DNA from: a virus
Taxonomy: Duplodnaviria; Heunggongvirae; Uroviricota; Caudoviricetes
Direction: 5' to 3' (one strand)
DNA: 9,599 nucleotides
IMG/VR virus record: IMGVR_UViG_2713896901_000003
Location: 1 to 9,599 of that record
Below the pieces are notes generated by a model that was not told where the DNA came from, ran no database searches, and saw only the letters and a list, made by a program, of their open reading frames with translations. The position numbers and the translations under genes were made by a program. Positions 1-9,599 of the stretch are shown in pieces (within the stretch, counting starts at the first letter, position 1; the number at the start of each line of letters is the position of its first letter).

Positions 1-24
1 AATTTCAAAGGTTAGTTTTTTCAT
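1..24 (-). CDS. ninB: NinB, first 8 codons only; the gene runs off the left edge of the window
   Basis: The reverse complement of 1..24 reads ATG AAA AAA CTA ACC TTT GAA ATT = MKKLTFEI. This matches the N-terminus I recall for lambda NinB. The position downstream of the replication genes is the usual start of the nin region. Confidence 0.6.
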
Positions 25-40
25 GACTTCCCTCTCCCCC

Positions 41-71
41 AAATAAAAAGGCCTGCGATTACCAGCAGGCC
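41..71 (-). terminator. Intrinsic terminator between the 89-aa ORF and ninB
   Basis: A 7-bp GC-rich stem, GGCCTGC (50-56) / GCAGGCC (65-71), with an 8-nt loop. On the minus strand it is followed by TTTTTATTT (complement of 41-49). Confidence 0.7.
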
Positions 72-97
72 TGTTATTAGCTCAGTGATGTAGATGG

Positions 98-367
98 TCA
101 TTGCTTCATCTCACTTTCCATTTCATCAATGTCAACGTCATCAGGAAGGTGGGAGCAATACGCCGCTATACCATGATGATTTATCTCATACCCTTTAAAC
201 GTTACCATCTGGCGCGTAATCTCAACTTCGTTCAGGAATCCGCCATCGCATAACTGCCTGGCTATTTTCGATTTGGTCTGGATTATTGGTAGTGCCTGTT
301 CTTTCAAAGCGTATGATATTTGTGCATCCCATGCCTTTTCGAGAATGGCTAATTGTTTTTTATTCAT
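98..367 (-). CDS. Hypothetical 89-aa protein in the lambda ren / P22 ninA slot
   Basis: ORF-track entry. Its ATG (365-367) overlaps the helicase TGA stop (367-369) as ATGA, which suggests translational coupling. An intrinsic terminator follows. I recognise no motif in the protein. Confidence 0.7.
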   Translation of the reverse strand: MNKKQLAILEKAWDAQISYALKEQALPIIQTKSKIARQLCDGGFLNEVEITRQMVTFKGYEINHHGIAAYCSHLPDDVDIDEMESEMKQ

Positions 368-1803
368 CAGAATCCTCCTTTCTTCTTGGACTGCGGTTCC
401 TCGCGTTCACGGCGGCGCATTTCAGCAGACTGTTGGTCTGTGTCATAAATAGCGCCATTTGCCTGAATGCAATACACCGTGCCGGTATTGCCATGACGAT
501 TGAGACGAAGGATTAGTTCGGTTTCACCAGGTGGAACACTGTCATCAAAAGCACCTTCACGATGGATCCCCACCCAATAATCGCAATCCTGTTCAATCTG
601 CCCTGTATCTCGGGAGTCACTTGGTAATGGGCGTTTATTGGTTCGGCTTTCCAGTGCGCGGTTAAGCTGTGTCAGAAGCACAACAACGCAATCAAGCTCT
701 TTGGCAAGGTTCTTCAGTCCTTTGGTGATCATGCCGTAGGCAAGGTCGTTACGATCGGCCTTTTCAGCGGTCATTAGTGTCAGGTAATCGACAAGAATCA
801 TGCCAACGCATCCTTTTTCTCGTTTGATTCGACGGCTTTCGCTGACGATTTGAGCCAAAGATAATCCCGGCGTGTCGTCGATGTAAAGCAGGTCGATTTC
901 ACTCAAGCGATTGGCTGTTTCTATCGCCCTGTTGAAGTCACCATCGTAATCACCCTGATAGCCGTCATCAGCGTCATTTGTCGCCGGAAGGTAAAAAATA
1001 TTCGGGTTAACACCTGACTTCTGCCCTACCAGTTTTTCCAGTATCTGGTCACTTGGCATTTCAAGGCTGAACATCAGAGCGGGCTTTTTCTCATGCACTG
1101 CGCAGTTGATTGCCATCTGGCTGTATAGCGTCGTTTTCCCCATCTTAGGGCGAGCGCCAATGACAAACAGAGAGCCTTTCACCAGACCTTTCGGTGACAG
1201 CATCCTGTCCAGCGATGGGATCCCTGTGCTCATTCCTCGTTGTTCGCCTGACGGGTCAAATCGCTTCTCAAGGTCGCTAACCCAGTCTTCCATGACCTCA
1301 CCAAATGAGCGAAGGCCGCGACGCGATCCGGTTTTTGCATGGTCTGTCAGTTGCGTGAAAATCGCCTGAATAGCTTCGTACTTCTGCGTCGCAGTCATTC
1401 CGTTGCGGGAATAGAGCAATTCCGTCGCTTCAGTCATGCGGTTGATGGCGTAGCGTTCCATTGCGGTTTCGCGAACCTGCATTGCATAGGCAACGATGTT
1501 TGCGGCGCTTGGCGTGTTCTTTGCGATCTCAGCGATATAAGCAAAACCGCCAACAGACGCCGTTAACGATTTACGCTCCAGTTCATCGAAAAGCGTCAGG
1601 CCATCTACTGGCTTTTGCTCCCGGTGCATTCTGATTATTTCTTCGAAAAGGATTTTGTGTGGTCGGCTGTAAAATGAATCAGGCTTCAGCATCGCCAGAA
1701 CTTTCTGGACGCGCTCACTGCTGTCATCATCCAGAAGCAATCCACCAATCACCGCCTGCTCTGCCTCGATGCTATGGGGCGGCGCATAAAAATTATCGGT
1801 CAT
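367..1803 (-). CDS. DnaB-family replicative DNA helicase (functional analogue of P22 gene 12)
   Basis: The N-terminus PPHSIEAEQAVIGGLLLD is typical of DnaB. Other DnaB motifs are present: Walker A GARPKMGKT, the VDYLTLM motif and the LTQLNR motif. I prefer the ATG at 1803 (GAGGG 8 nt upstream) over the GTG at 1818 given in the track. The start overlaps the end of the upstream initiator gene. Confidence 0.95.
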   Translation of the reverse strand: MTDNFYAPPHSIEAEQAVIGGLLLDDDSSERVQKVLAMLKPDSFYSRPHKILFEEIIRMHREQKPVDGLTLFDELERKSLTASVGGFAYIAEIAKNTPSAANIVAYAMQVRETAMERYAINRMTEATELLYSRNGMTATQKYEAIQAIFTQLTDHAKTGSRRGLRSFGEVMEDWVSDLEKRFDPSGEQRGMSTGIPSLDRMLSPKGLVKGSLFVIGARPKMGKTTLYSQMAINCAVHEKKPALMFSLEMPSDQILEKLVGQKSGVNPNIFYLPATNDADDGYQGDYDGDFNRAIETANRLSEIDLLYIDDTPGLSLAQIVSESRRIKREKGCVGMILVDYLTLMTAEKADRNDLAYGMITKGLKNLAKELDCVVVLLTQLNRALESRTNKRPLPSDSRDTGQIEQDCDYWVGIHREGAFDDSVPPGETELILRLNRHGNTGTVYCIQANGAIYDTDQQSAEMRRREREEPQSKKKGGF

Positions 1804-2692
1804 CGTGTTCACCCTCACGAACTTTCAGGTAGGTATTATCGTTAAGCAGGAAATCAAATCCCTTTTTGTGCCAGACAGTTCCGCGTTGATGGTTTGGGCG
1901 CTCTTCGAACATCCATCGGCAATTTTCGCCTACGTAGCTCAAATAATTTCTCCAGTCCTGCATCGAGAACCCATGCCCGTCAAGCTGGCGGGTTATAACT
2001 CCGGCTTTGCGCCAGAACGTTCGGATCTGGTTTTTACGCTTGTCATTCAGTGCGCGGATTCTTGGCGCTTCAGGAAGGATTTCGTGGTAAGCATCGACAA
2101 CATCCTGACAGCTGACGGAAGGTTTTTTCTTGTCAGACTTTTTGTCTGCTGTGGCACTCTCTAATACGTCAGTATTAGAGATAATATTATTATATTCTTT
2201 ATCTGTGGTAATTTGCTGGTAATCTGCTGGTACTGTATTGCTTACAGGCATTGGTATTGCTGGCTTTGAGGTGGTAATTTGCTGGTAATCTGCTGGTACA
2301 AAATTTGACTGATAATCGTCATATTTCTCTACCGAGAAAACTGAGAATTTACCGTGTGAAACCCAGTCAATCATGCCGAGTTTTTTGAACTTTCTAAGCA
2401 GGTACTGAACGCGATCTGGTTTGAGTCCTGTTTCAAACGCCAGAGAGTTTCTACCGCCAAGTAGCTTCCCTCTGCCTACCAGAATTTCTCCTGCGTCAGT
2501 CATTACATACTCAGGCGTATGCTTTGCTTTGAGGATTAAGTGAACCCACAGATGCGCTGCTTCTGCGTCCTTGTAAAACGGCACATCCATAATTTTACGG
2601 TGCAGCAAGGCATACCCCTTACCGCTGCTTTGATGCGGTCGTTGTAGCCTTCTGGCCTCTCTGGCTTCGGCTAGATTAGATATGTTACTCAT
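1793..2692 (-). CDS. Replication initiation protein (functional analogue of lambda O / P22 gp18) containing the ori iterons
   Basis: It lies directly upstream of the helicase gene and overlaps it. Iterons plus an AT-rich tract sit in the middle of the gene, as in lambda O. There is an AAGGAG Shine-Dalgarno 7 nt upstream of the ATG at 2690-2692. Confidence 0.85.
2205..2299. repeat. Putative phage origin iterons, with the adjacent AT-rich unwinding tract at 2161..2204
   Basis: The 29-bp sequence GTGGTAATTTGCTGGTAATCTGCTGGTAC occurs twice without mismatch, at 2205-2233 and 2271-2299. Each copy holds two GGTAAT(T/C)TGCTGG units. A degenerate unit, GGTATTGCTGG, lies between them at 2253-2263. The flanking tract CTAATACGTCAGTATTAGAGATAATATTATTATATTCTTTATC is very AT-rich. 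Confidence 0.8.
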
Positions 2693-2831
2693 GACCTTTC
2701 TCCTTCTGCATCAGCTTCACTTTTTCCAACTCAGCCCGGAATCGACCAGGCTGCTTGAAGCTGGACAGGAAGCGATCACGTAGTATGTGTTTGTGAATTT
2801 TGTCCTGGTAAGGACTGAGTTGTTTTGTCAT
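2685..2831 (-). CDS. Small basic 48-aa ORF between cII and the replication initiator (not in the ORF track)
   Basis: My translation is [48 protein letters not shown]. An AGGAG lies 5 nt upstream of the ATG (2829-2831). Its stop overlaps the initiator start as ATGAGTAA. As I recall, P22 has an 'orf48' of the same size in the same position. Confidence 0.5.
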
Positions 2832-2842
2832 AATTACTCCTG

Positions 2843-2919
2843 TGGATTGATCCAGTAATGACCTCAGAATTCCATCTGGATTTGTTCAGAACGCTCGGTC
2901 TTGCACACCGGGCGTTTTT
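2843..2919 (+). ncRNA. oop: oop-like antisense RNA overlapping the 3' end of cII
   Basis: The plus strand reads GATCCAGTAATGACCTCAGAATTCCATCTGGATTTGTTCAGAACGCTCGG...CCGGGCGTTTTTT. This is nearly the lambda oop sequence as I recall it. It ends in the hairpin GCTCGGT/ACCGGGC plus a T-run (2893-2920). The 5' end is approximate. Confidence 0.75.
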
Positions 2920-3163
2920 TCTTTGTGATTCCATCAAGCGCATACTTAAAAGCCCTGCTAATTGGACTGATGTCTGATGCCATTCCGAAAGCACACAAGA
3001 CCGAAGCAATAAACCGCCAGTCCGTTCTGCTTATCTTCGATTCATGACAGCCAATCATCTTTGCCAGACCACGCTGGGTAAGCGTTGACAGGTTGATGAG
3101 TAAATCTGTTTCTGCGCGATCAACGTCACGCTGTGATAGTTTGCTGTAACTTGTTTGTTCCAT
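2864..3163 (-). CDS. cII: CII transcriptional activator (lysogeny establishment)
   Basis: The C-terminus [19 protein letters not shown] matches the lambda CII C-terminus ([17 protein letters not shown]). An HTH-like segment, [17 protein letters not shown], is present. The position between nutR and the replication genes fits. The N-terminal two thirds differ from lambda. Confidence 0.9.
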
Positions 3164-3173
3164 TTCTTATGAT
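3141..3173 (+). promoter_or_regulatory. Candidate pRE with a CII-binding direct repeat
   Basis: The sequence is TTGC-TGTAAC-TTGT (3141-3154), then 13 nt, then TATGAT (3168-3173), then TTCC. This mirrors the lambda pRE layout (TTGC-N6-TTGC, 13 nt, AAGTAT, TTCC). It overlaps the cII start codon on the opposite strand, as in lambda. Confidence 0.5.
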
Positions 3174-3190
3174 TTCCAATAGTGAATATT

Positions 3191-3213
3191 ACGCATCTGT
3201 TGATGCGTTTTTT
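3191..3213 (+). terminator. Hairpin plus T-run between nutR and cII; the functional orientation is ambiguous (tR1 position)
   Basis: A perfect 7-bp stem, ACGCATC (3191-3197) / GATGCGT (3202-3208), with loop TGTT. On the plus strand it is followed by TTTTTG. On the minus strand it is preceded by an A-run and followed only by AAUAUUCACUAUU. Confidence 0.5.
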
Positions 3214-3215
3214 GT

Positions 3216-3253
3216 GGGGACGAATCATCCCCGACCTGATTGTTTAAAGAGCG
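3216..3253 (-). promoter_or_regulatory. nutR (boxA plus boxB)
   Basis: The minus strand reads CGCTCTTTAAACA (boxA, complement of 3241-3253), an 8-nt spacer, then GGGGATGATTCGTCCCC (boxB hairpin, complement of 3216-3232). The identical 17-nt boxB recurs at nutL. Confidence 0.8.
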
Positions 3254-3260
3254 GTGTTAC

Positions 3261-3485
3261 TTATGCTGCCTGATTCGGTTTTGGAAACAGGTGTGGCAAA
3301 TCGGGGCGAATTTCGTAAGCCTTGATCTGCCCTCCAGTGGCGTTAACGATGGCGGTAACTTTCTCTGGAGAGACCAACCCGCCTTTCAGCCATTTGTGTA
3401 CTGCTGGCTGCGTTACACCACACTTGTCGGCAAGGCGCTTTTGGCTACCGACAATTTTCAAGGCTCGTTGAATTACTAAATTCAT
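3261..3485 (-). CDS. cro: Cro-like repressor (small HTH protein)
   Basis: It is the first gene of the pR transcript. It has an HTH-like segment, SQKRLADKCGVTQPAVHKWL. I prefer the start at MNLVIQ (ATG 3483-3485, AGAGG 7 nt upstream). The track start at 3506 lies only about 6 nt from the predicted pR transcription start and has no Shine-Dalgarno. Confidence 0.85.
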   Translation of the reverse strand: MNLVIQRALKIVGSQKRLADKCGVTQPAVHKWLKGGLVSPEKVTAIVNATGGQIKAYEIRPDLPHLFPKPNQAA

Positions 3486-3518
3486 GAGCATACCTCTTGT
3501 GGTCATTACTTATAACCA

Positions 3519-3547
3519 AAGATAACTCAAGTTATAAAAAATAGCAA
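3519..3547 (-). promoter_or_regulatory. pR promoter
   Basis: The minus strand reads TTGCTA (complement of 3542-3547), 17 nt, TATCTT (complement of 3519-3524). The -10 hexamer is the same as at pL, and the operator geometry is also the same. Confidence 0.7.
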
Positions 3548-3584
3548 TAACCTTTGTTATTTTACTTTGGATAACCGTAGTTAT
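3522..3584. promoter_or_regulatory. Tripartite right operator OR1-OR3 (ATAAC-N4-GTTAT palindromes)
   Basis: ATAACTCAAGTTAT lies at 3522-3535, ATAACCTTTGTTAT at 3547-3560 and ATAACCGTAGTTAT at 3571-3584. Centre-to-centre spacing is 25 and 24 bp. The sites overlap the pR -10/spacer, abut both -35 elements, and overlap the pRM spacer/-10. Confidence 0.8.
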
Positions 3585-3589
3585 AGATT
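3561..3589 (+). promoter_or_regulatory. Candidate pRM promoter
   Basis: TTTACT (3561-3566), 17 nt, TAGATT (3584-3589). TAGATT is the lambda pRM -10 hexamer. The predicted transcription start falls at or next to the cI ATG at 3597, which implies a leaderless cI mRNA as in lambda. Confidence 0.55.
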
Positions 3590-3596
3590 TGTGGGT

Positions 3597-4304
3597 ATGA
3601 AAACATTCGCAGAAAGACTAAATGCAGCCATGAGCTCAGCAGGTGTGTCGCAATCACAGCTTGCTGACATGGTTGGAATATCTCAGCCAGCCATACAGAA
3701 GATGTCATCCGGTAAAACAAACGGATCTCGCAAGATGGTTGAATTAGCCAATGCTTTAAAAGTACGCCCTGAATGGCTTAGCTCTGGTATTGGTGAAATG
3801 AGGGATGGTACACATGAAGAACCATCCAATGTCCGTGAATCATCTTTAAAAGCTGTGGTATGGGAAGATATTAAAAGAAACGATGACGAGTTTGTCGCGT
3901 TGCCTCTTCTTAACGTTTCGCTTTCAGCTGGAAACGGTAGCTGCGAGCTAGAGGAATCATCAGAGTTCTCTTTGGTTTTCAGAAAGTACTATCTGAAAAA
4001 GATGGGGGTATCTGAAAGATCAGCCAAGCTAGTTAGGGTTGTAGGGCAAAGCATGGAACCAACGCTTCACGACGGAGATGTTGTTGGTGTTAACACACAA
4101 GATACCACAATCAGAGATGGTAAAACCTACGCTATTTGCCAGTCTGATTTGTTACGAGTAAAAACATTAATCGCCACCCCTACATCGGTGATAATCAGAT
4201 CAATAAATCGCGAAGAGTACCCAGATGAAGTAATGGATAGAGATGAATTTCATGAAACCGTAAGGATTATTGGCAGAGTATTCTGGTCGTCTCATAGTTG
4301 GTAA
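3597..4304 (+). CDS. cI: CI prophage repressor (N-terminal HTH plus C-terminal LexA/S24-type autocleavage domain)
   Basis: HTH segment SQSQLADMVGISQPAIQKMSSG. A candidate Ala-Gly cleavage site lies in LSAGNGS. The catalytic Ser context is GQSMEPT and the Lys context is LRVKTL. It is divergent from cro across the operators. I prefer the ATG at 3597 over the TTG at 3567 in the track, because that TTG lies inside the operator/promoter region. Confidence 0.9.
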   Translation: MKTFAERLNAAMSSAGVSQSQLADMVGISQPAIQKMSSGKTNGSRKMVELANALKVRPEWLSSGIGEMRDGTHEEPSNVRESSLKAVVWEDIKRNDDEFVALPLLNVSLSAGNGSCELEESSEFSLVFRKYYLKKMGVSERSAKLVRVVGQSMEPTLHDGDVVGVNTQDTTIRDGKTYAICQSDLLRVKTLIATPTSVIIRSINREEYPDEVMDRDEFHETVRIIGRVFWSSHSW

Positions 4305-4344
4305 CCGATAATCAGAAGAAGACTTACGGAAGTGCGGAGGGATA

Positions 4345-4641
4345 ATGGAATTTCTGATAGTTTTTGTTGTTGTTTTGGTCATCATTCTTTTTGTTTTGCT
4401 AAGCATTAGCAAAAAGCTATCTCAAATGATTGAACATAGCTCTAATCGCGCAAAAGAAGAAGACCATCTAATTGATATAAAAGAGATTCTCTCTGATATA
4501 AAAATCACATTAGATGAAATAAAATACACAACAGATCTAATTGAACAGTATAAAATACCAACCCCAAACGAAAGAAAAGCAATAGATCAATATCGTATTG
4601 ACTTAGAAATCGACGAAATGCTAAGCAAAAGAAAAGACTAA
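4345..4641 (+). CDS. 98-aa single-pass membrane protein with an acidic helical C-terminal domain, in the rex slot; function unknown
   Basis: GGAGGG Shine-Dalgarno just upstream of the ATG. The N-terminal hydrophobic segment EFLIVFVVVLVIILFVLLSI is followed by KK. The rest is I/L/E/K/D-rich with a heptad-like pattern. It starts 41 nt after the cI stop on the same strand and is followed by a strong terminator. Confidence 0.8.
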   Translation: MEFLIVFVVVLVIILFVLLSISKKLSQMIEHSSNRAKEEDHLIDIKEILSDIKITLDEIKYTTDLIEQYKIPTPNERKAIDQYRIDLEIDEMLSKRKD

Positions 4642-4645
4642 AAAC

Positions 4646-4673
4646 ACCCGGCCTCAGCGCCGGGTTTTCTTTT
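4646..4673 (+). terminator. Intrinsic terminator ending the cI operon
   Basis: A perfect 7-bp GC-rich stem, ACCCGGC (4646-4652) / GCCGGGT (4659-4665), with a 6-nt loop, followed by TTTTCTTTT. Confidence 0.85.
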
Positions 4674-4838
4674 CCTGCCGTCCCCCACCCAATCAACCAT
4701 CCTCATCATAGACAAGCATCAAGCCAAAGGTAGCACTTTCACCCCGCACGCAAGCCCTCAAACACCAATCAATCAGCAACATTTACAAAAATAAAATACC
4801 TTTGTTATCCATCACTTATAACTTATTTACCATAAAAT

Positions 4839-4877
4839 ATAAACTAAGTTATTGACCACACCTATAACCTAAGTTAT
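4839..4877. promoter_or_regulatory. Left operators OL2 and OL1
   Basis: ATAAACTAAGTTAT at 4839-4852 has one mismatch to the OR consensus. ATAACCTAAGTTAT at 4864-4877 is perfect. Spacing is 25 bp. More degenerate candidates lie at 4795-4808 (AATACCTTTGTTAT) and about 4818-4831. Confidence 0.7.
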
Positions 4878-4881
4878 CTTT
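4853..4881 (+). promoter_or_regulatory. pL promoter
   Basis: TTGACC (4853-4858), 17 nt, TATCTT (4876-4881). OL1 lies in the spacer/-10 and OL2 abuts the -35, a mirror image of pR. Confidence 0.75.
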
Positions 4882-4926
4882 AAGCCATCAGCAGGACGCA
4901 GGAAGCCAAACGGAACAGATTGGCAG

Positions 4927-4964
4927 GCTCTTTAACATTGATGGAATGGGGATGATTCGTCCCC
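4927..4964 (+). promoter_or_regulatory. nutL (boxA plus boxB)
   Basis: GCTCTTTAACA (4927-4937) matches the boxA consensus. A 10-nt spacer follows, then GGGGATGATTCGTCCCC (4948-4964), which is identical to the nutR boxB. Confidence 0.8.
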
Positions 4965-5119
4965 ACCAAAGAGAGGTTGGCTTTGGGATTTGATGAATGT
5001 GCAGGTCGATGCACTAACGCTTAGCGGTGAGCACCTGCCTTTGGGGCAGGATGGGTAGCCGCAATCAGGAGATCGACACCTGACATCAAATCACCAAAGT
5101 CAATCATCGGAGGTATCCA

Positions 5120-5326
5120 GTGAAAGCAAGAGAGATTCGCAAACTCGAACGCGCTCGTAAGCACAAAGAGGCGACAGCAAAACGTAAAAATATTGACCGT
5201 GTTTCAATGGTGGTTTCGCTAGCAGGAGCGAATAGGAAGAAGGTTGAATGTGGTTCGTGCTGCCTGCCAAACGTAGCTCTTTACGCAGCAGGCTACCGGA
5301 AATCAAAACAACTGACAGCAAGATGA
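5120..5326 (+). CDS. N: N-type transcription antiterminator (P22 gp24-like C-terminal half)
   Basis: GTG start with GGAGG 6 nt upstream. The N-terminus is arginine/lysine-rich: KAREIRKLERARKHKEATAKRK. The C-terminal IDRV...SLAG...VALYAAGYRKSKQLTAR resembles P22 gp24 as I recall it (IDRVTKAISLAGTRQKEVEGGSVLLPGVALYAAGHRKSKQITAR). It is the first gene after pL/nutL. Confidence 0.85.
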   Translation: MKAREIRKLERARKHKEATAKRKNIDRVSMVVSLAGANRKKVECGSCCLPNVALYAAGYRKSKQLTAR

Positions 5327-5376
5327 CTTGTGTTGGTCGCCAGAAAATGAAATTAGGCAGCAAACCACTTATTTGA
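5326..5376 (+). pseudogene. Fossil 3' end of a lambda/phage-21-type N gene
   Basis: It translates as TCVGRQKMKLGSKPLI followed by a stop. Compare the lambda N C-terminus ITCSGRQKIKGKSIPLI and the phage 21 N C-terminus VTCVGRQKIKLGSKPLI, both as I recall them. It lies in the -1 frame relative to the intact N gene and begins at that gene's stop codon. Confidence 0.6.
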
Positions 5377-5387
5377 GAGGAATTAAT

Positions 5388-6011
5388 ATGTCATCAATCC
5401 GCTTAACTACGAGAATGAAAGAGGAAATCGCTCGTAACGCTTTAATTAAGTCTGGGGTTTTCACTGAACTTGAAGAAGTAACAAAGTTAAAGAACCAGCT
5501 TGCACTTGACGCCAGAGTTATTGCGTTTGGCGGAAAAAAGAAAACTGAGGAAGTGGACAAGCTGGCATCAAACTTAATGGCTATAAGTGAAGAACTTCAA
5601 AAGGTGGGATGTTCATTTTACTCATGCGATGTTCGTTCTACATCAATTTATCTGACTGTATCTGGCAGAAGGGTGGGATGGCATTCATATGGGAAAGACG
5701 GCAACGGTGAAGATATATTGCTTCCCACCCCAGAAAAAGATAAATGCATGTTTGATGCAGAACACGAAATAACAAAAAGGTTTGATGAAATCTGCGCATT
5801 GCAACAAAAACTTGAATCCAGGAAAAAGGATATCGAATCAAATGTATGGGCTGCTTTGAACTCAGTCACAACAGTTAAGCGACTTATTGAAGTTTGGCCT
5901 GAAAGCAAAGAATTGCTACCAAAAGAAGCAGATAAAGCAAGTGCAGCACTTCCTGCTTTACGGGTAGAAGATTTGAATAAGATGATTGGACTTCCTTCCG
6001 AGGCCGCATAA
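5388..6011 (+). CDS. Hypothetical 207-aa protein, first cargo gene after N
   Basis: ORF-track frame. I prefer the ATG at 5388 (GAGAGG 7 nt upstream) over the TTG at 5328, which would overlap the N fossil. The gene is AT-rich relative to the lambda-like block, and its own terminator follows. Confidence 0.85.
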   Translation: MSSIRLTTRMKEEIARNALIKSGVFTELEEVTKLKNQLALDARVIAFGGKKKTEEVDKLASNLMAISEELQKVGCSFYSCDVRSTSIYLTVSGRRVGWHSYGKDGNGEDILLPTPEKDKCMFDAEHEITKRFDEICALQQKLESRKKDIESNVWAALNSVTTVKRLIEVWPESKELLPKEADKASAALPALRVEDLNKMIGLPSEAA

Positions 6012-6026
6012 TCGGCCTTTATTTTT
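6001..6026 (+). terminator. Intrinsic terminator after the 207-aa gene
   Basis: Stem AGGCCG (6001-6006) / CGGCCT (6013-6018). The loop CATAAT contains the stop codon. TTATTTTT follows. Confidence 0.65.
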
Positions 6027-6074
6027 GGCATAAACAACAGAATAAACACTGCACTGAATTATTTGAGGTTAGAT

Positions 6075-6545
6075 ATGACAAAATCATGGAGCGTACCTTT
6101 TCCTGAATCAGAAACTGAACATGAGGGAATGCCTGTTTTCTGGAGATTCCAGGCGACAGTTGAAGAAGATGGAATCAAAATATTCGCACTTCAATATATA
6201 GCTTTTCATCAGACAGAGCATTATGCATGGTTGGTTCCTGCGCATTGGATTGTTAATTTTAAACCAGCACCAAATCAGTGGTTACAGGAATGGAAACAAA
6301 GGAGAAATAGATATGCAATTAAGAAAGTAGCAAAAAATGCAGAAAGATCTTTTGCATTCCCAACGAAGAAACTTGCCATTGAAAGTTTATTGCGCCGGAA
6401 GAAATACCATTTAATGAGAATCAAACAAGATTTGGCTGTTGTATCAACTCTTGTTGATGGGATGAAGAATATTGATACATCAACACCAGATATTGAATAT
6501 AACTTTGGACACAACCAAGAAACAGAAAATTGGGTGTTTTATTAG
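6075..6545 (+). CDS. Hypothetical 156-aa protein with a strongly basic central segment
   Basis: ORF-track frame. I prefer the ATG at 6075 (GAGG 6 nt upstream) over the TTG at 6063. The central segment is KQRRNRYAIKKVAKNAERSFAFPTKKLAIESLLRRKKYHLMRIK, flanked by acidic and aromatic ends. Confidence 0.85.
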   Translation: MTKSWSVPFPESETEHEGMPVFWRFQATVEEDGIKIFALQYIAFHQTEHYAWLVPAHWIVNFKPAPNQWLQEWKQRRNRYAIKKVAKNAERSFAFPTKKLAIESLLRRKKYHLMRIKQDLAVVSTLVDGMKNIDTSTPDIEYNFGHNQETENWVFY

Positions 6546-6557
6546 TACGAATAAGCA

Positions 6558-6589
6558 CTGTGTATTCATTCCAACGAGTGAATACACGG
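6558..6589 (+). other. Long stem-loop in the intergenic region after the 156-aa gene
   Basis: A perfect 9-bp stem, GTGTATTCA (6560-6568) / TGAATACAC (6579-6587), with a 10-nt loop. It can be extended by 2 further pairs, one of them a G-U wobble. Confidence 0.6.
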
Positions 6590-6649
6590 AGCAATGTCGC
6601 TCGTAACTAAACAGGAGCCGACTTGTTCTGATTATTGGAAATCTTCTTT

Positions 6650-6675
6650 GCCCTCTAATGTGAGGGCGATTTTTT
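6650..6675 (+). terminator. Intrinsic terminator upstream of the 122-aa gene
   Basis: Stem GCCCTC (6650-6655) / GAGGGC (6662-6667) with loop TAATGT, followed by GATTTTTT. Confidence 0.7.
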
Positions 6676-6695
6676 ATCTATGAGGATATGAATAG

Positions 6696-7064
6696 ATGTC
6701 AAACATCAAAAAATACATCATTGATTGCGACTGGAAAGCATCAATAGAAATTGAAATCGACCATGACGTAATGACAGAGGAAAAACTTCACCAGATTAAT
6801 AATTTCTGGTCAGACTCTGAATACCGACTCAATAAACACGGCTCTGTATTAAATGCTGTATTAATCATGCTGGCGCAACATGCTCTGCTTATAGCAATTT
6901 CAAGCGACTTAAATGCATATGGTGTTGTGTGTGAGTTCGACTGGAATGATGGAAATGGTCAGGAAGGATGGCCTCCAATGGATGGTAGCGAAGGAATAAG
7001 AATTACCGATATCGATACATCAGGAATATTTGATTCAGATGATATGACTATCAAAGCCGCCTGA
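6696..7064 (+). CDS. Hypothetical, highly acidic 122-aa protein
   Basis: ORF-track entry with GAGGA upstream. By my count the translation has 22 Asp/Glu against 8 Lys/Arg. The acidity is concentrated in the C-terminal third: FDWNDGNGQEGWPPMDGSEGIRITDIDTSGIFDSDDM. Confidence 0.85.
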   Translation: MSNIKKYIIDCDWKASIEIEIDHDVMTEEKLHQINNFWSDSEYRLNKHGSVLNAVLIMLAQHALLIAISSDLNAYGVVCEFDWNDGNGQEGWPPMDGSEGIRITDIDTSGIFDSDDMTIKAA

Positions 7065-7089
7065 GCGCTGCGTTACCGCATACCAATAA

Positions 7090-7110
7090 CGCTTCACTCG
7101 AGGCGTTTTT
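7090..7110 (+). terminator. Intrinsic terminator between the cargo genes and cIII
   Basis: Stem CGCTTC (7090-7095) / GAGGCG (7100-7105) with one G-U pair and loop ACTC, followed by TTTTT. Confidence 0.6.
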
Positions 7111-7136
7111 CGTTATGTATAAATAAGGAGCACACC

Positions 7137-7301
7137 ATGCAATATGCCATTGCAGGGTGGCCTGTTGCTGGCTGCCCTTCCGAATCTTTACTTGAACGAA
7201 TCACCCGTAAATTACGTGACGGATGGAAACGCCTTATCGACATACTTAATCAGCCAGGAGTCCCAAAAAATGGATCAAACACTTATGGCTATCCAGACTA
7301 A
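7137..7301 (+). CDS. cIII: CIII, inhibitor of FtsH (HflB) protease (54 aa, not in the ORF track)
   Basis: My translation is [54 protein letters not shown]. This is essentially lambda CIII as I recall it. AAGGAG lies upstream of the ATG. Confidence 0.9.
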   Translation: MQYAIAGWPVAGCPSESLLERITRKLRDGWKRLIDILNQPGVPKNGSNTYGYPD

Positions 7302-7413
7302 ATTCACTATCGCCACTTTTATTGGCGATGAAAAGATGTTTCGTGAGGCCGTCGACGCTTATAAAAAATGGATATTAATACTGAAACTGAGATCAAGCAA
7401 AAGCATTCACTAA
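7270..7413 (+). CDS. kil: Kil, host cell-division (FtsZ) inhibitor, 47 aa
   Basis: [47 protein letters not shown] matches lambda Kil as I recall it. The gene overlaps the 3' end of cIII as in lambda. The 89-aa ORF in the track is an upstream in-frame extension of it. Confidence 0.85.
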
Positions 7414-7784
7414 CCCACTTCCCTGTTTTCCTAATCAGCCCGGCATTTCGCGGGCGATATTTTCACAGCTATTTCAGGAGTTCAGCCATGAACGCTTATT
7501 ACATTCAGGATCGTCTTGAGGCTCAGAGCTGGACGCGTCACTACCAGCAGATCGCCCGTGAAGAGAAAGAGGCAGAACTGGCAGACGACATGGAAAAAGG
7601 CCTGCCCCAGCACCTGTTTGAATCGCTATGCATCGATCATTTGCAACGCCACGGGGCCAGCAAAAAAGCCATTACCCGTGCGTTTGATGACGATGTTGAG
7701 TTTCAGGAGCGCATGGCAGAACACATCCGGTACATGGTTGAAACCATTGCTCACCATCAGGTTGATATTGATTCAGAGGTATAA
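7368..7784 (+). CDS. gam: Gam, RecBCD inhibitor (138-aa long form; the 98-aa GamS form starts at the ATG at 7488)
   Basis: [15 protein letters not shown]...[15 protein letters not shown]...[10 protein letters not shown] is near-identical to lambda Gam as I recall it. An internal start at 7488 has CAGGAG upstream. Confidence 0.95.
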
Positions 7785-7789
7785 AACGG

Positions 7790-8575
7790 ATGAGTACAGC
7801 ACTCGCAACGCTGGCAGGGAAGCTGGCTGAACGTGTCGGCATGGATTCTGTCGACCCACAGGAACTGATCACCACTCTTCGCCAGACGGCATTTAAAGGT
7901 GATGCCAGCGATGCGCAGTTCATCGCATTGCTGATCGTCGCCAACCAGTACGGCCTTAATCCGTGGACGAAAGAAATTTACGCCTTCCCTGACAAGCAGA
8001 ACGGCATCGTTCCGGTGGTGGGCGTTGATGGCTGGTCCCGCATCATCAATGAAAACCAGCAGTTTGATGGCATGGACTTTGAGCAGGACAATGAATCCTG
8101 TACATGCCGGATTTACCGCAAAGACCGTAATCATCCGATCTGCGTTACCGAATGGATGGATGAATGCCGCCGCGAACCATTCAAAACCCGCGAAGGCAGA
8201 GAAATCACCGGACCGTGGCAGTCGCATCCCAAACGGATGTTACGGCATAAAGCCATGATTCAGTGTGCCCGTCTGGCCTTCGGATTTGCTGGTATCTATG
8301 ACAAGGATGAAGCCGAGCGCATTGTCGAAAATACCGCATACACTGCAGAACGTCAGCCGGAACGCGACATCACTCCGGTTAACGATGAAACCATGCAGGA
8401 GATTAACACTCTGCTGATTGCCCTGGACAAAACATGGGATGACGACTTATTGCCGCTCTGTTCCCAGATATTTCGCCGCGACATTCGCGCATCGTCAGAA
8501 CTGACACAGGCCGAAGCAGTGAAAGCTCTTGGATTCCTGAAACAGAAAGCCTCTGAACAGAAGGTGGCTGCATGA
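7790..8575 (+). CDS. bet: Bet (Red-beta) single-strand annealing recombinase
   Basis: The 261-aa product [37 protein letters not shown]... is near-identical to lambda Bet as I recall it. Confidence 0.95.
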
Positions 8576-9252
8576 CACCGGACATTATCCTGCAGCGTAC
8601 CGGGATCGACGTGAGAGCTGTCGAACAGGGGGATGATGCGTGGCACAAATTACGGCTCGGCGTCATTACAGCTTCAGAAGTTCACAACGTGATAGCAAAA
8701 CCCCGATCCGGAAAGAAATGGCCTGACATGAAAATGTCCTACTTCCACACCCTGCTTGCTGAGGTTTGCACCGGTGTGGCTCCGGAAGTTAATGCTAAGG
8801 CGCTGGCCTGGGGAAAACAGTACGAGAACGACGCCAGAACCCTGTTTGAATTCACTTCCGGCGTGAATGTTACTGAATCCCCGATCATCTATCGCGACGA
8901 AAGTATGCGCACCGCCTGCTCTCCCGATGGTTTATGCAGTGACGGCAATGGCCTTGAGCTGAAATGCCCGTTTACCTCCCGGGATTTCATGAAGTTCCGG
9001 CTCGGTGGTTTCGAGGCCATAAAGTCGGCTTACATGGCCCAGGTGCAGTACAGCATGTGGGTGACGCGAAAAGATGCCTGGTACTTTGCCAACTATGACC
9101 CGCGAATGAAGCGTGAAGGCCTGCATTATGTCGTGGTTGAGCGGGATGAAAAGTACATAGCGAGTTTTGACGAGATGGTGCCGGAGTTCATCGAAAAAAT
9201 GGACGAGGCACTAGCTGAAATTGGTTTTGTATTTGGGGAGCAATGGCGATGA
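8572..9252 (+). CDS. exo: Exo (Red-alpha) 5'-3' dsDNA exonuclease
   Basis: The 226-aa product [40 protein letters not shown]... is near-identical to lambda Exo as I recall it. Its ATG overlaps the bet stop as ATGA. Confidence 0.95.
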
Positions 9253-9431
9253 AGCATCCTCACGATAATATCCGGGTAGGCGCGATAACTTTCGTCTACT
9301 CCGTTACAAAGCGAGGCTGGGTATTTCCCGGCCTTTCTGTTATCCGAAATCCACTGAAAGCACAGCGGCTGGCTGAAGAGATAAATAATAAACGAGGGAC
9401 TGTATGCACAAAGCATCTCCTGTTGAATTAA
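9243..9431 (+). CDS. Homologue of lambda orf60a (function unknown)
   Basis: [52 protein letters not shown]... matches lambda orf60a as I recall it. It overlaps the exo stop. Confidence 0.8.
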
Positions 9432-9595
9432 GAACGAGTATCGGGATGGCACATAGCCTCGCTCAAATTGGAGTCAGGTTTGTGCCAATACCAGTAGAAA
9501 CAGACGAAGAATTTCATACGTTAGCCACATCCCTTTCACAAAAGCTGGAAATGATGGCGGCGAAAGCAGAAGCAAACGAGAGAGACCCGGCATGA
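9404..9595 (+). CDS. Homologue of lambda orf63 (function unknown)
   Basis: [41 protein letters not shown]... matches lambda orf63 as I recall it. A further ATG at 9592 probably starts the next gene, which runs off the window. Confidence 0.8.
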   Translation: MHKASPVELRTSIGMAHSLAQIGVRFVPIPVETDEEFHTLATSLSQKLEMMAAKAEANERDPA

Positions 9596-9599
9596 CAAC

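Follow-up and report, generated by a model that had tools for sequence, protein, structure and literature searches.

In the DNA considered here, the end of a second N antiterminator gene lies directly behind a complete one, out of frame and beyond its stop codon. The DNA is a stretch of 9,599 nucleotides (nt) from a virus of the Caudoviricetes (IMG/VR virus record IMGVR_UViG_2713896901_000003, positions 1 to 9,599), and "the window" below means this whole stretch. An earlier note on this DNA had read the second N end as a recombination scar and had also raised the idea that a ribosomal frameshift might fuse it to the intact N. We conclude, at a probability of about 90%, that the 51 to 53 nt that follow the stop codon of N form an inert recombination scar, the 3' remnant of a phage-21-type N gene that was replaced at its stop codon by an N gene with a P22-type C-terminus. 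The coordinates of all features are collected in Table 1.

The N reading frame of the window ends in ...YAAGYRKSKQLTAR, that is, RKSKQLTAR followed by TGA, in the list of open reading frames (ORFs). At an offset of +2 from the N frame, which is equal to -1, the sequence past N is open from the ATG at 5248 and reads ...TTDSKMTCVGRQKMKLGSKPLI-TGA, with the stop codon ending at 5376. Positions 5326 to 5376 match the 3' end of phage 21 N, as given in the lambda h434 imm21 record (protein tail ...MGVTCVGRQKIKLGSKPLI), at 50 of 51 nt and the 3' end of lambda N (tail ...ITCSGRQKIKGKSIPLI / GITCSGRQKIKGKSIPLI) at 30 of 51 nt. In blastn searches, the 127 nt from 5324 to 5450 were 100% identical (E 4e-58) to HK542, HK244, SH2026Stx1, and dozens of Stx2a phages. 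In HK542, HK244, SH2026Stx1, and the Stx phages, this DNA contains the last codons of the annotated N, in frame (...MGVTCVGRQKMKLGSKPLI / ...RSEMGVTCVGRQKMKLGSKPLI), and in HK542 and SH2026Stx1 the in-frame N is followed by the same hypothetical gene as in the window, a cargo gene that encodes an Nmad5 domain. The resemblance goes far beyond chance, and the segment is the true end of an N gene. Its homology to 21-type N ends 53 nt before the stop codon. The coordinates that the earlier note gave for N, for the 42-codon ORF in the fossil frame, for the -1 frame, and for a C-AAAA-C run at 5304 to 5309 all hold against the sequence and the ORF list, the phage 21 and lambda N protein tails that it had quoted are exact when set beside the phage 21 record and lambda N, and the alignment to the two N 3' ends that it had proposed gives the matches reported here.

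The segment has the features of a pseudogene fragment, in that it is homologous to the 3' part of N, lacks the 5' part, is out of frame, and stands in the same position upstream of the next gene. It does not have those of a functional C-terminal (RNA-polymerase-binding) region of a lambda/21-type N, since it lies behind the N TGA in another frame and no conserved route to its translation was found. It makes up most of the present intergenic spacer between N and the Nmad5 gene. An Rfam scan of the whole window at gathering thresholds found no RNA element in or near the scar and only a cIII thermoregulator elsewhere, and a promoter and terminator scan of positions 4600 to 6200 found nothing within 5300 to 5390.

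At the N stop codon of the window, blastn matches of two kinds come together. Matches that run from 5261 to 5450 at ~98% identity are to PhiR12 and Stx1a phages, which carry the same P22-type tail and the out-of-frame remnant, and matches that run from 5324 onward are to phages with an in-frame 21-type N. To the left of the joint, the sequence is that of P22-type N ends (AGR, followed by TAA or TGA elsewhere), and from TGAC on it is that of 21-type N (GG[TCG]-GTG-ACT). At the switch point, in-frame 21-type genes read GG[TCG] GTG ACT TGT, while P22-type ends without a remnant read AGG TAA..., AGA TGA TAA..., or AGG TGA CGA TCC.... Comparison of these contexts places the switch point within AGR/TGAC, on or beside the N stop codon, so the stop codon of the window's N is either shared with the 21-type sequence or supplied by it, and GGTGAC is a possible 6-nt microhomology at the joint. 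Because the joint lies on or next to the stop codon, outside the N coding sequence, the P22-type N is complete. A mosaic junction is thus present, as the earlier note had proposed, but it is not inside the 3' end of the N coding sequence, where that note had put it.

Each flank of this joint is found elsewhere with other partners, and similarity is lost abruptly at one point, as in the mosaic joints of lambdoid phages. The left flank occurs elsewhere with TAA or TGA and at least six other downstream sequences, and the right flank occurs behind in-frame N, Nun, and others. Eight complete E. coli genomes carry the N allele of the window, which encodes 68 amino acids (aa). Its ending is ACG GCG AGG TAA in strains F2_407_2_2 and E2865, where another gene comes immediately next and the scar is absent, and AGG TGA in SJ2D, where the scar and then a different next gene come after it. 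P22 gene 24 likewise ends ACA GCG AGG TAA, without a remnant. Since the N allele and P22 gene 24 both occur elsewhere without the scar, the scar is part of the downstream module, not of the N allele. The proposal in the earlier note that this is a recombination scar and that the cargo formerly stood behind a 21-type N is borne out by these contexts, given that the same bases form an in-frame N end before the same cargo elsewhere and that the window's N allele is elsewhere free of the scar. The segment that encodes the P22-type tail, from 5261 to 5323, is ~98% identical in nucleotide sequence to the corresponding part of the 127-aa N of PhiR12, Stx1a, HK97, and H-19B phages. A block composed of this tail-coding segment and the scar is common to no fewer than five families of N alleles, which differ in their arginine-rich motifs. 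That so many N families share the tail segment and the scar points to later homologous exchange within 5261 to 5323.

We anchored 110 loci (109 from IMG/VR plus the window) only on the start of the cargo gene and measured homology to 21-type N back from its stop codon. The lengths form a nested series. Remnants of 9 nt were found in 15 loci, of 20 to 21 nt in 11, of 39 nt in 1, of 53 to 54 nt (the class of the window) in 26, of 82 nt in 1, of 86 to 87 nt in 12, and of 93 nt in 8; a further 11 loci had 153 to 202 nt of homology, in a mosaic N that is in frame, and 25 had 327 to 342 nt, which are full genes. The 87-nt class, and similar joints before other cargo genes, lies downstream of a Nun gene and its terminator, and the 93-nt class lies downstream of an unrelated gene with a terminator of its own. 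The distinct homology lengths therefore indicate at least seven independent events in which the 5' part of N was replaced and its end was left on the cargo.

The scar of the window is itself widespread. The earlier note had suggested a search for the same scar in related prophages, and it is identical in HK97, H-19B, EDL933-Stx (933W-type), and VT2-Sakai and is present in 614 of 5426 complete E. coli genomes (~11%); BP-4795 and others also have a joint of this type. The N-gp45 region of HK97 and H-19B, like that of 933W/EDL933-Stx, VT2-Sakai, PhiR12, and Stx1a phages, has the identical junction, ...YAAGYRKSKQLTAR-TGA and then the out-of-frame (M/V)TCVGRQKMKLGSKPLI-TGA. It differs from the window in its N, which is the 127-aa HK97/H-19B allele, whereas the 68-aa allele of the window has an arginine-rich motif and a boxB of another kind. 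In HK97 and H-19B, moreover, the gp45-like gene directly follows the scar, and in the window the Nmad5 gene lies between them. In phage 21, HK542, HK244, and SH2026Stx1, by contrast, the segment is in frame and is the real C-terminus of N, while in the window it lies past a stop codon and in another frame. The remnants downstream of nun in HK022-like prophages likewise keep the same 21-type N end on the same cargo, the remainder of N having been replaced, but they are longer than the window's (87 to 93 nt) and stand after the nun terminator. Lambdoid phages are marked by mosaic novel joints and by remnants of genes where modules meet, a view associated with Hendrix, Juhala, and Casjens. The joint in the window resembles such novel joints in its abrupt switch of similarity at a gene boundary, in flanks that are recombined elsewhere, and in neighboring genes that are intact, and it differs from the usual ones in being unusually clean, in lying on a stop codon, and in having a graded series of remnants for comparison.

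Several loci recovered in this survey deserve separate mention. Seven Nun-encoding (HK022-type) IMG/VR prophages (L012, at ~616 to 760, and L034, L052, L062, L078, L086, and L091) carry an 87- to 93-nt remnant (NRIYYSKPRSEMGVTCVGRQKMKLGSKPLI) after the nun terminator. We also looked for an N remnant after nun in HK022 itself, where one was expected, and it is absent from the reference genome, which has other sequence and IS903 at that place. In the 86-nt class, represented by L042 (minus strand, ~11510 to 11660) and eight similar loci, the remnant starts with ATG and forms a 36-codon ORF, MWLKDRHNLYYRKPRSEMGVTCVGRQKMKLGSKPLI; in the L042 type it lies downstream of a divergently oriented gene, with no recognizable N upstream.

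The history that these contexts suggest would begin with an ancestor that carried a 21-type N directly upstream of the early left cargo, an arrangement still found in HK542, HK244, SH2026Stx1, and phage 21. Nearly all of this gene would have been swapped, by short-homology or illegitimate exchange, for an N with a P22-type C-terminus, and a crossover on the stop codon (AGR/TGAC) would have left the incoming N complete and correctly terminated, with the last 17 codons of the old N remaining out of frame as a spacer before the ribosome-binding site of the cargo. Such a joint would have survived because N and the cargo ribosome-binding site both remained functional. The block of P22-type tail, scar, and cargo would have spread later, and homologous exchange in the tail-coding segment would have put it behind several N alleles, including the 68-aa one of the window. 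In this account, the homology, the place of the joint, the other contexts of its two flanks, the series of remnants, and the frequency among genomes are observed, and we infer the direction and the mechanism of the original exchange as well as the lack of function of the scar.

For signs of constraint, we compared 52 remnant and 43 in-frame copies of the 51 nt, in samples that were not conditioned on the remnant sequence. One consensus is matched identically by 42 of the 52 remnant copies and by 34 of the 43 in-frame copies, with no indels. Read in the old frame, the private point changes in remnant copies, R5H (twice), K9R, and L10S, are all nonsynonymous. In-frame copies have private single-base changes of both kinds, K13K and T1T being synonymous and P14Q nonsynonymous. 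This contrast leans toward relaxed constraint without reaching significance (Fisher P = 0.14), there being few substitutions in either group. The earlier note had asked whether the scar shows synonymous-only variation, indicating selection, or random decay; the comparison gives no sign of coding constraint on the scar, but its power is low.

Some of these results weigh against an inert scar. No scar copy has an indel or a premature stop codon in the old frame, and 42 of 52 are identical to the consensus of functional copies, which could by itself suggest constraint; the contrast between synonymous and nonsynonymous changes does not reach significance; and the direction of the original event is not provable from extant sequences. 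The intactness of the scar copies is, however, equally expected from low overall divergence together with ongoing exchange with in-frame copies. M8I and an alternative ending, ...GSKLLYEG compared to ...GSKPLI, occur both in frame and in scars (L085 and L016-type loci), and scar and in-frame copies therefore still exchange sequence. Over the 51 nt, nucleotide diversity (pi) amounts to 0.009 among remnants and 0.011 among in-frame copies, compared to 0.05 to 0.06 over the initial 300 nt of the cargo gene. We considered this low diversity as a sign of constraint and rejected it, since a divergent block at ~130 to 360 of the cargo gene inflates the mean and several 51-nt windows in a sliding-window analysis are equally invariant. 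Because pi of the scar is the same in both contexts and is no outlier compared to windows of the cargo gene, we ascribe the intactness of the remnant to low divergence and recombination, not to function.

Could the remnant nevertheless have been kept for what it does? One way would be a noncoding role, either as a spacer or standby site for the downstream gene or as a homology patch for swaps of N and cargo, ~51 nt being long enough for RecA- or Red-type exchange. The lack of indels among 52 copies would fit, as would the polymorphisms common to scar and in-frame copies, which imply exchange through the segment, the many N alleles and several different cargo genes that flank it, and the recurrence of the boundary motif TTATTTGAG before the next gene, but the same cargo has a remnant of only 9, 20, or 21 nt in 26 of the 110 loci, so that the 51 nt would not be needed for its expression. 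The segment is also no less diverse than several 51-nt windows of the neighboring coding gene, and homology alone would make it a crossover site, with no need for selection, all of which makes retention for such a role improbable. We find it more improbable still that the remnant is active, whether through an RTGA overlap (or rare -1 slippage in TCA-AAA alleles) that yields a free or fused 17-residue 21-type RNA-polymerase-binding tail modulating antitermination or as a 51-nt patch under second-order selection as a recombination linker for N swaps; the absence of frame-breaking mutations in scar copies and the ATG or GTG overlap described below are compatible with a low-level product. A yet slimmer chance goes to translation of the fossil by itself, from the ATG at 5248 as a 42-codon ORF or, by termination-reinitiation at the RTGA of 5323 to 5326, as the 17-residue (M/V)TCVGRQKMKLGSKPLI. 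ATGA and GTGA overlaps are a classical arrangement for translational coupling, and the position in question is ATG in 39, GTG in 33, GTA in 2, and ATA in 1 of 75 scar-bearing loci, so that a start codon overlaps the N stop in 72 of 75; the 17-codon frame after the overlap is uninterrupted in 73 of 75, with the remaining two extending to a 19-codon ending. However, the R of RTGA is the third base of an Arg AGR codon that scar-free N ends also use, and 21-type N ancestrally has GTG here, as a Val codon. The start codon can therefore be explained without selection, and the 17-codon ORF is most probably a side effect of the Arg AGA (AGR) codon. The joint also gives N a UGA-C stop, a weak termination context. 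Further points against translation are that the AGA allele has no Shine-Dalgarno sequence at a useful distance, that three loci have GTA or ATA, that the private substitutions in scar copies are all nonsynonymous, and that the same cargo is served by 9- to 21-nt remnants. As for the 42-codon ORF, its ATG lies in allele-specific N sequence, and among relatives the frame is open for 13 to 33 codons upstream of the CAG (Gln) codon of the tail, with no ATG in 3 of 54 loci.

The slimmest chance of all falls to a programmed -1 frameshift at TC-A AAA C (5305 to 5308), which would add the 21-type tail to the P22-type N (...YRKSK-TTDSKMTCVGRQKMKLGSKPLI) and so create an alternative form of N whose end for binding RNA polymerase would differ. 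No stop codon interrupts the -1 frame between the A-run and the fossil's stop, and re-pairing of a single tRNA is possible in principle at a lysine AAA codon with an A before it. HK97 has the A4 run, and so do 23 of 54 scar-bearing loci sampled without regard to the slip site (AAA TCA AAA CAA). In contrast, the other 31, H-19B among them, encode the same K-S-K-Q as AAA TCC AAA CAR, which removes the run, and P22 has AGC AAA at this position. Bacterial programmed -1 frameshift sites include the A-AAA-AAG of dnaX, those of IS elements, and the G/GT sites of phage tail chaperone genes; the only likeness of the window to them is an A-run before an open -1 frame, whereas it has no tandem slippery heptamer of the form X-XXY-YYZ (A-AAA-C would allow a single-site slip at best), no stimulator, and a site that is not conserved among carriers. 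The RNA of 5296 to 5400 folds at -14 kcal/mol (z = +0.92), with 168 of 200 shuffled sequences folding at least as well, and no GGAGG-like sequence lies just upstream of the slip site. The same N tail appears to work without the scar in P22 and in sister prophages, and the same cargo also occurs behind remnants too short to encode the 21-type tail. The earlier note had itself rated the frameshift as unlikely, a rating with which the lost A-runs, the P22 sequence, and the lack of a stimulatory structure agree. The inert remnant of a replaced 21-type N thus remains our explanation: the scar is common, ordinary, and explained, and it is no frameshift device.

The window as a whole is the immunity and early region of a lambdoid prophage, with the pL operon on the plus strand, as judged from the ORF list, Rfam, and a promoter scan. 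Along it lie, in order, the repressor gene, a pL-like promoter, nutL, N, the cargo genes, the cIII thermoregulator, bet, and exo. The N of the window matched the Pfam family PF25694 (N_peptide) with an E value of 2.7e-16 and 60.3 bits, against a cutoff of 27.9, and the match is limited to profile positions 44 to 100. P22 gp24 (gene 24) is 67% identical to it by tblastn over residues 21 to 68 only. The description of this protein as a P22-type N in the earlier note therefore stands for these regions, that is, for the C-terminal two-thirds, and does not extend to the N-terminus, which is short, arginine rich, and different (MKAREIRKLERARKHKEATAKRK) and had no match in the phage collection. NCBIfam gave no matches for N or for the cargo genes, and the same 68-aa N in sister E. 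coli prophages is labeled by PGAP as an incomplete "regulator" pseudogene. The 17-mer of boxB occurs twice in the window, each time after a boxA, with 0.03 copies expected by chance, and cognate nut sites are thus present in both early operons, N being the first gene after pL. Because an identical boxB follows boxA in both nutL and nutR, the 68-aa N is probably, despite the pseudogene label, a working and unusually short N with its own nut specificity.

N genes in this collection are mosaics of at least three exchangeable parts, an arginine-rich motif, a middle, and a tail. In L007 (2569 to 2841; E. coli 23CRST013), for example, a 21-like middle (ARKIALKLSGCVRADKAASLGSLRCKK) is fused to a P22-type tail, and in HK542 the body of lambda N is fused to a 21-type tail. 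Mosaicism at the N-terminus of N has been noted in epsilon34 (PMC2629481).

Downstream of the scar, the Nmad5 gene is the first gene after N, and its Shine-Dalgarno sequence, GAGAGG, begins at the fossil stop codon. This gene is bracketed by two copies of TTATTTGAG, the first of which is made up of the final 8 nt of 21-type N and a G and the second of which lies in front of the HK97-gp45-like gene. In HK97 and H-19B, which lack the Nmad5 gene, the scar directly abuts the gp45-like gene. The bracketing copies, the gene's own terminator, and the direct junction of scar and gp45-like gene in HK97 and H-19B suggest that the Nmad5 gene was inserted there like a moron, or deleted, at the boundary formed by the old N stop. 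Rfam placed the thermoregulator Lambda_thermo, at 88.5 bits and full length, upstream of a cIII-like ORF.

TABLE 1 Positions of the N remnant, the joint, and neighboring features in the window
Feature	Position	Strand	Details
nutR	3216-3253	-	Downstream of cro; boxA CGCTCTTTAA; boxB 17-mer identical to that of nutL, 3216-3232
Repressor gene	3567-4304		
pL-like promoter	4852-4880		
nutL	4927-4964	+	boxA GCTCTTTAACA, 4927-4937; boxB hairpin GGGGATGATTCGTCCCC, 4948-4964
N antiterminator gene	5120-5326	+	68 codons; GTG start, GGAGG 7 nt upstream; TGA stop 5324-5326
42-codon ORF in fossil frame	5248-5376	+	MWFVLPAKRSSLRSRLPEIKTTDSKMTCVGRQKMKLGSKPLI; ORF list; mechanical ORF, ATG in allele-specific N sequence
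Conserved segment encoding P22-type N tail	5261-5323	+	...PNVALYAAGYRKSKQLTAR; blastn matches start at query 262, window 5261
A4 run (TC-A AAA C)	5305-5308	+	Proposed -1 slip site; not conserved
Mosaic joint AGA-TGA-C	5321-5327		Context tables; backward-extension homology lengths of 53-54 nt
17-codon ORF	5323-5376	+	MTCVGRQKMKLGSKPLI; its ATG overlaps the N TGA (ATGA, 5323-5326)
Fossil	5326-5376	+	Final 16 codons (TCVGRQKMKLGSKPLI) and stop of phage-21-type N; -1 frame relative to window N
TTATTTGAG, first copy	5369-5377		
Nmad5 cargo gene	5388-6011	+	207 aa; Pfam PF18757 (nucleotide modification associated domain 5), E 2.2e-70
Intrinsic-terminator-like hairpin and T-run	6000-6027	+	End of Nmad5 gene; terminator scan
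TTATTTGAG, second copy	6059-6067	+	In front of HK97-gp45-like gene
HK97-gp45-like gene	6075-6545		
Lambda_thermo (cIII thermoregulator)	7124-7182	+	Rfam

The identical scar has been public for decades in the sequences of HK97, H-19B, and 933W-type phages. A full-text literature search, together with look-ups of Degnan 2007 and Plunkett 1999, found no paper that describes the remnant, with the likeliest sources outside the reach of that search. The scar leaves what is known of N function unchanged, and for annotation it means that neither the 42-codon nor the 17-codon ORF should be called a gene. What it offers is a clean and datable example of lambdoid genome assembly, in which an exchange at very short or no homology fell exactly on a stop codon and left both genes intact. 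The leftover N end has since traveled with its cargo into ~11% of complete E. coli genomes, Shiga toxin phages included, and the graded series of N-end remnants, from 9 to 93 nt before one cargo gene, is a data set on where mosaic joints survive.

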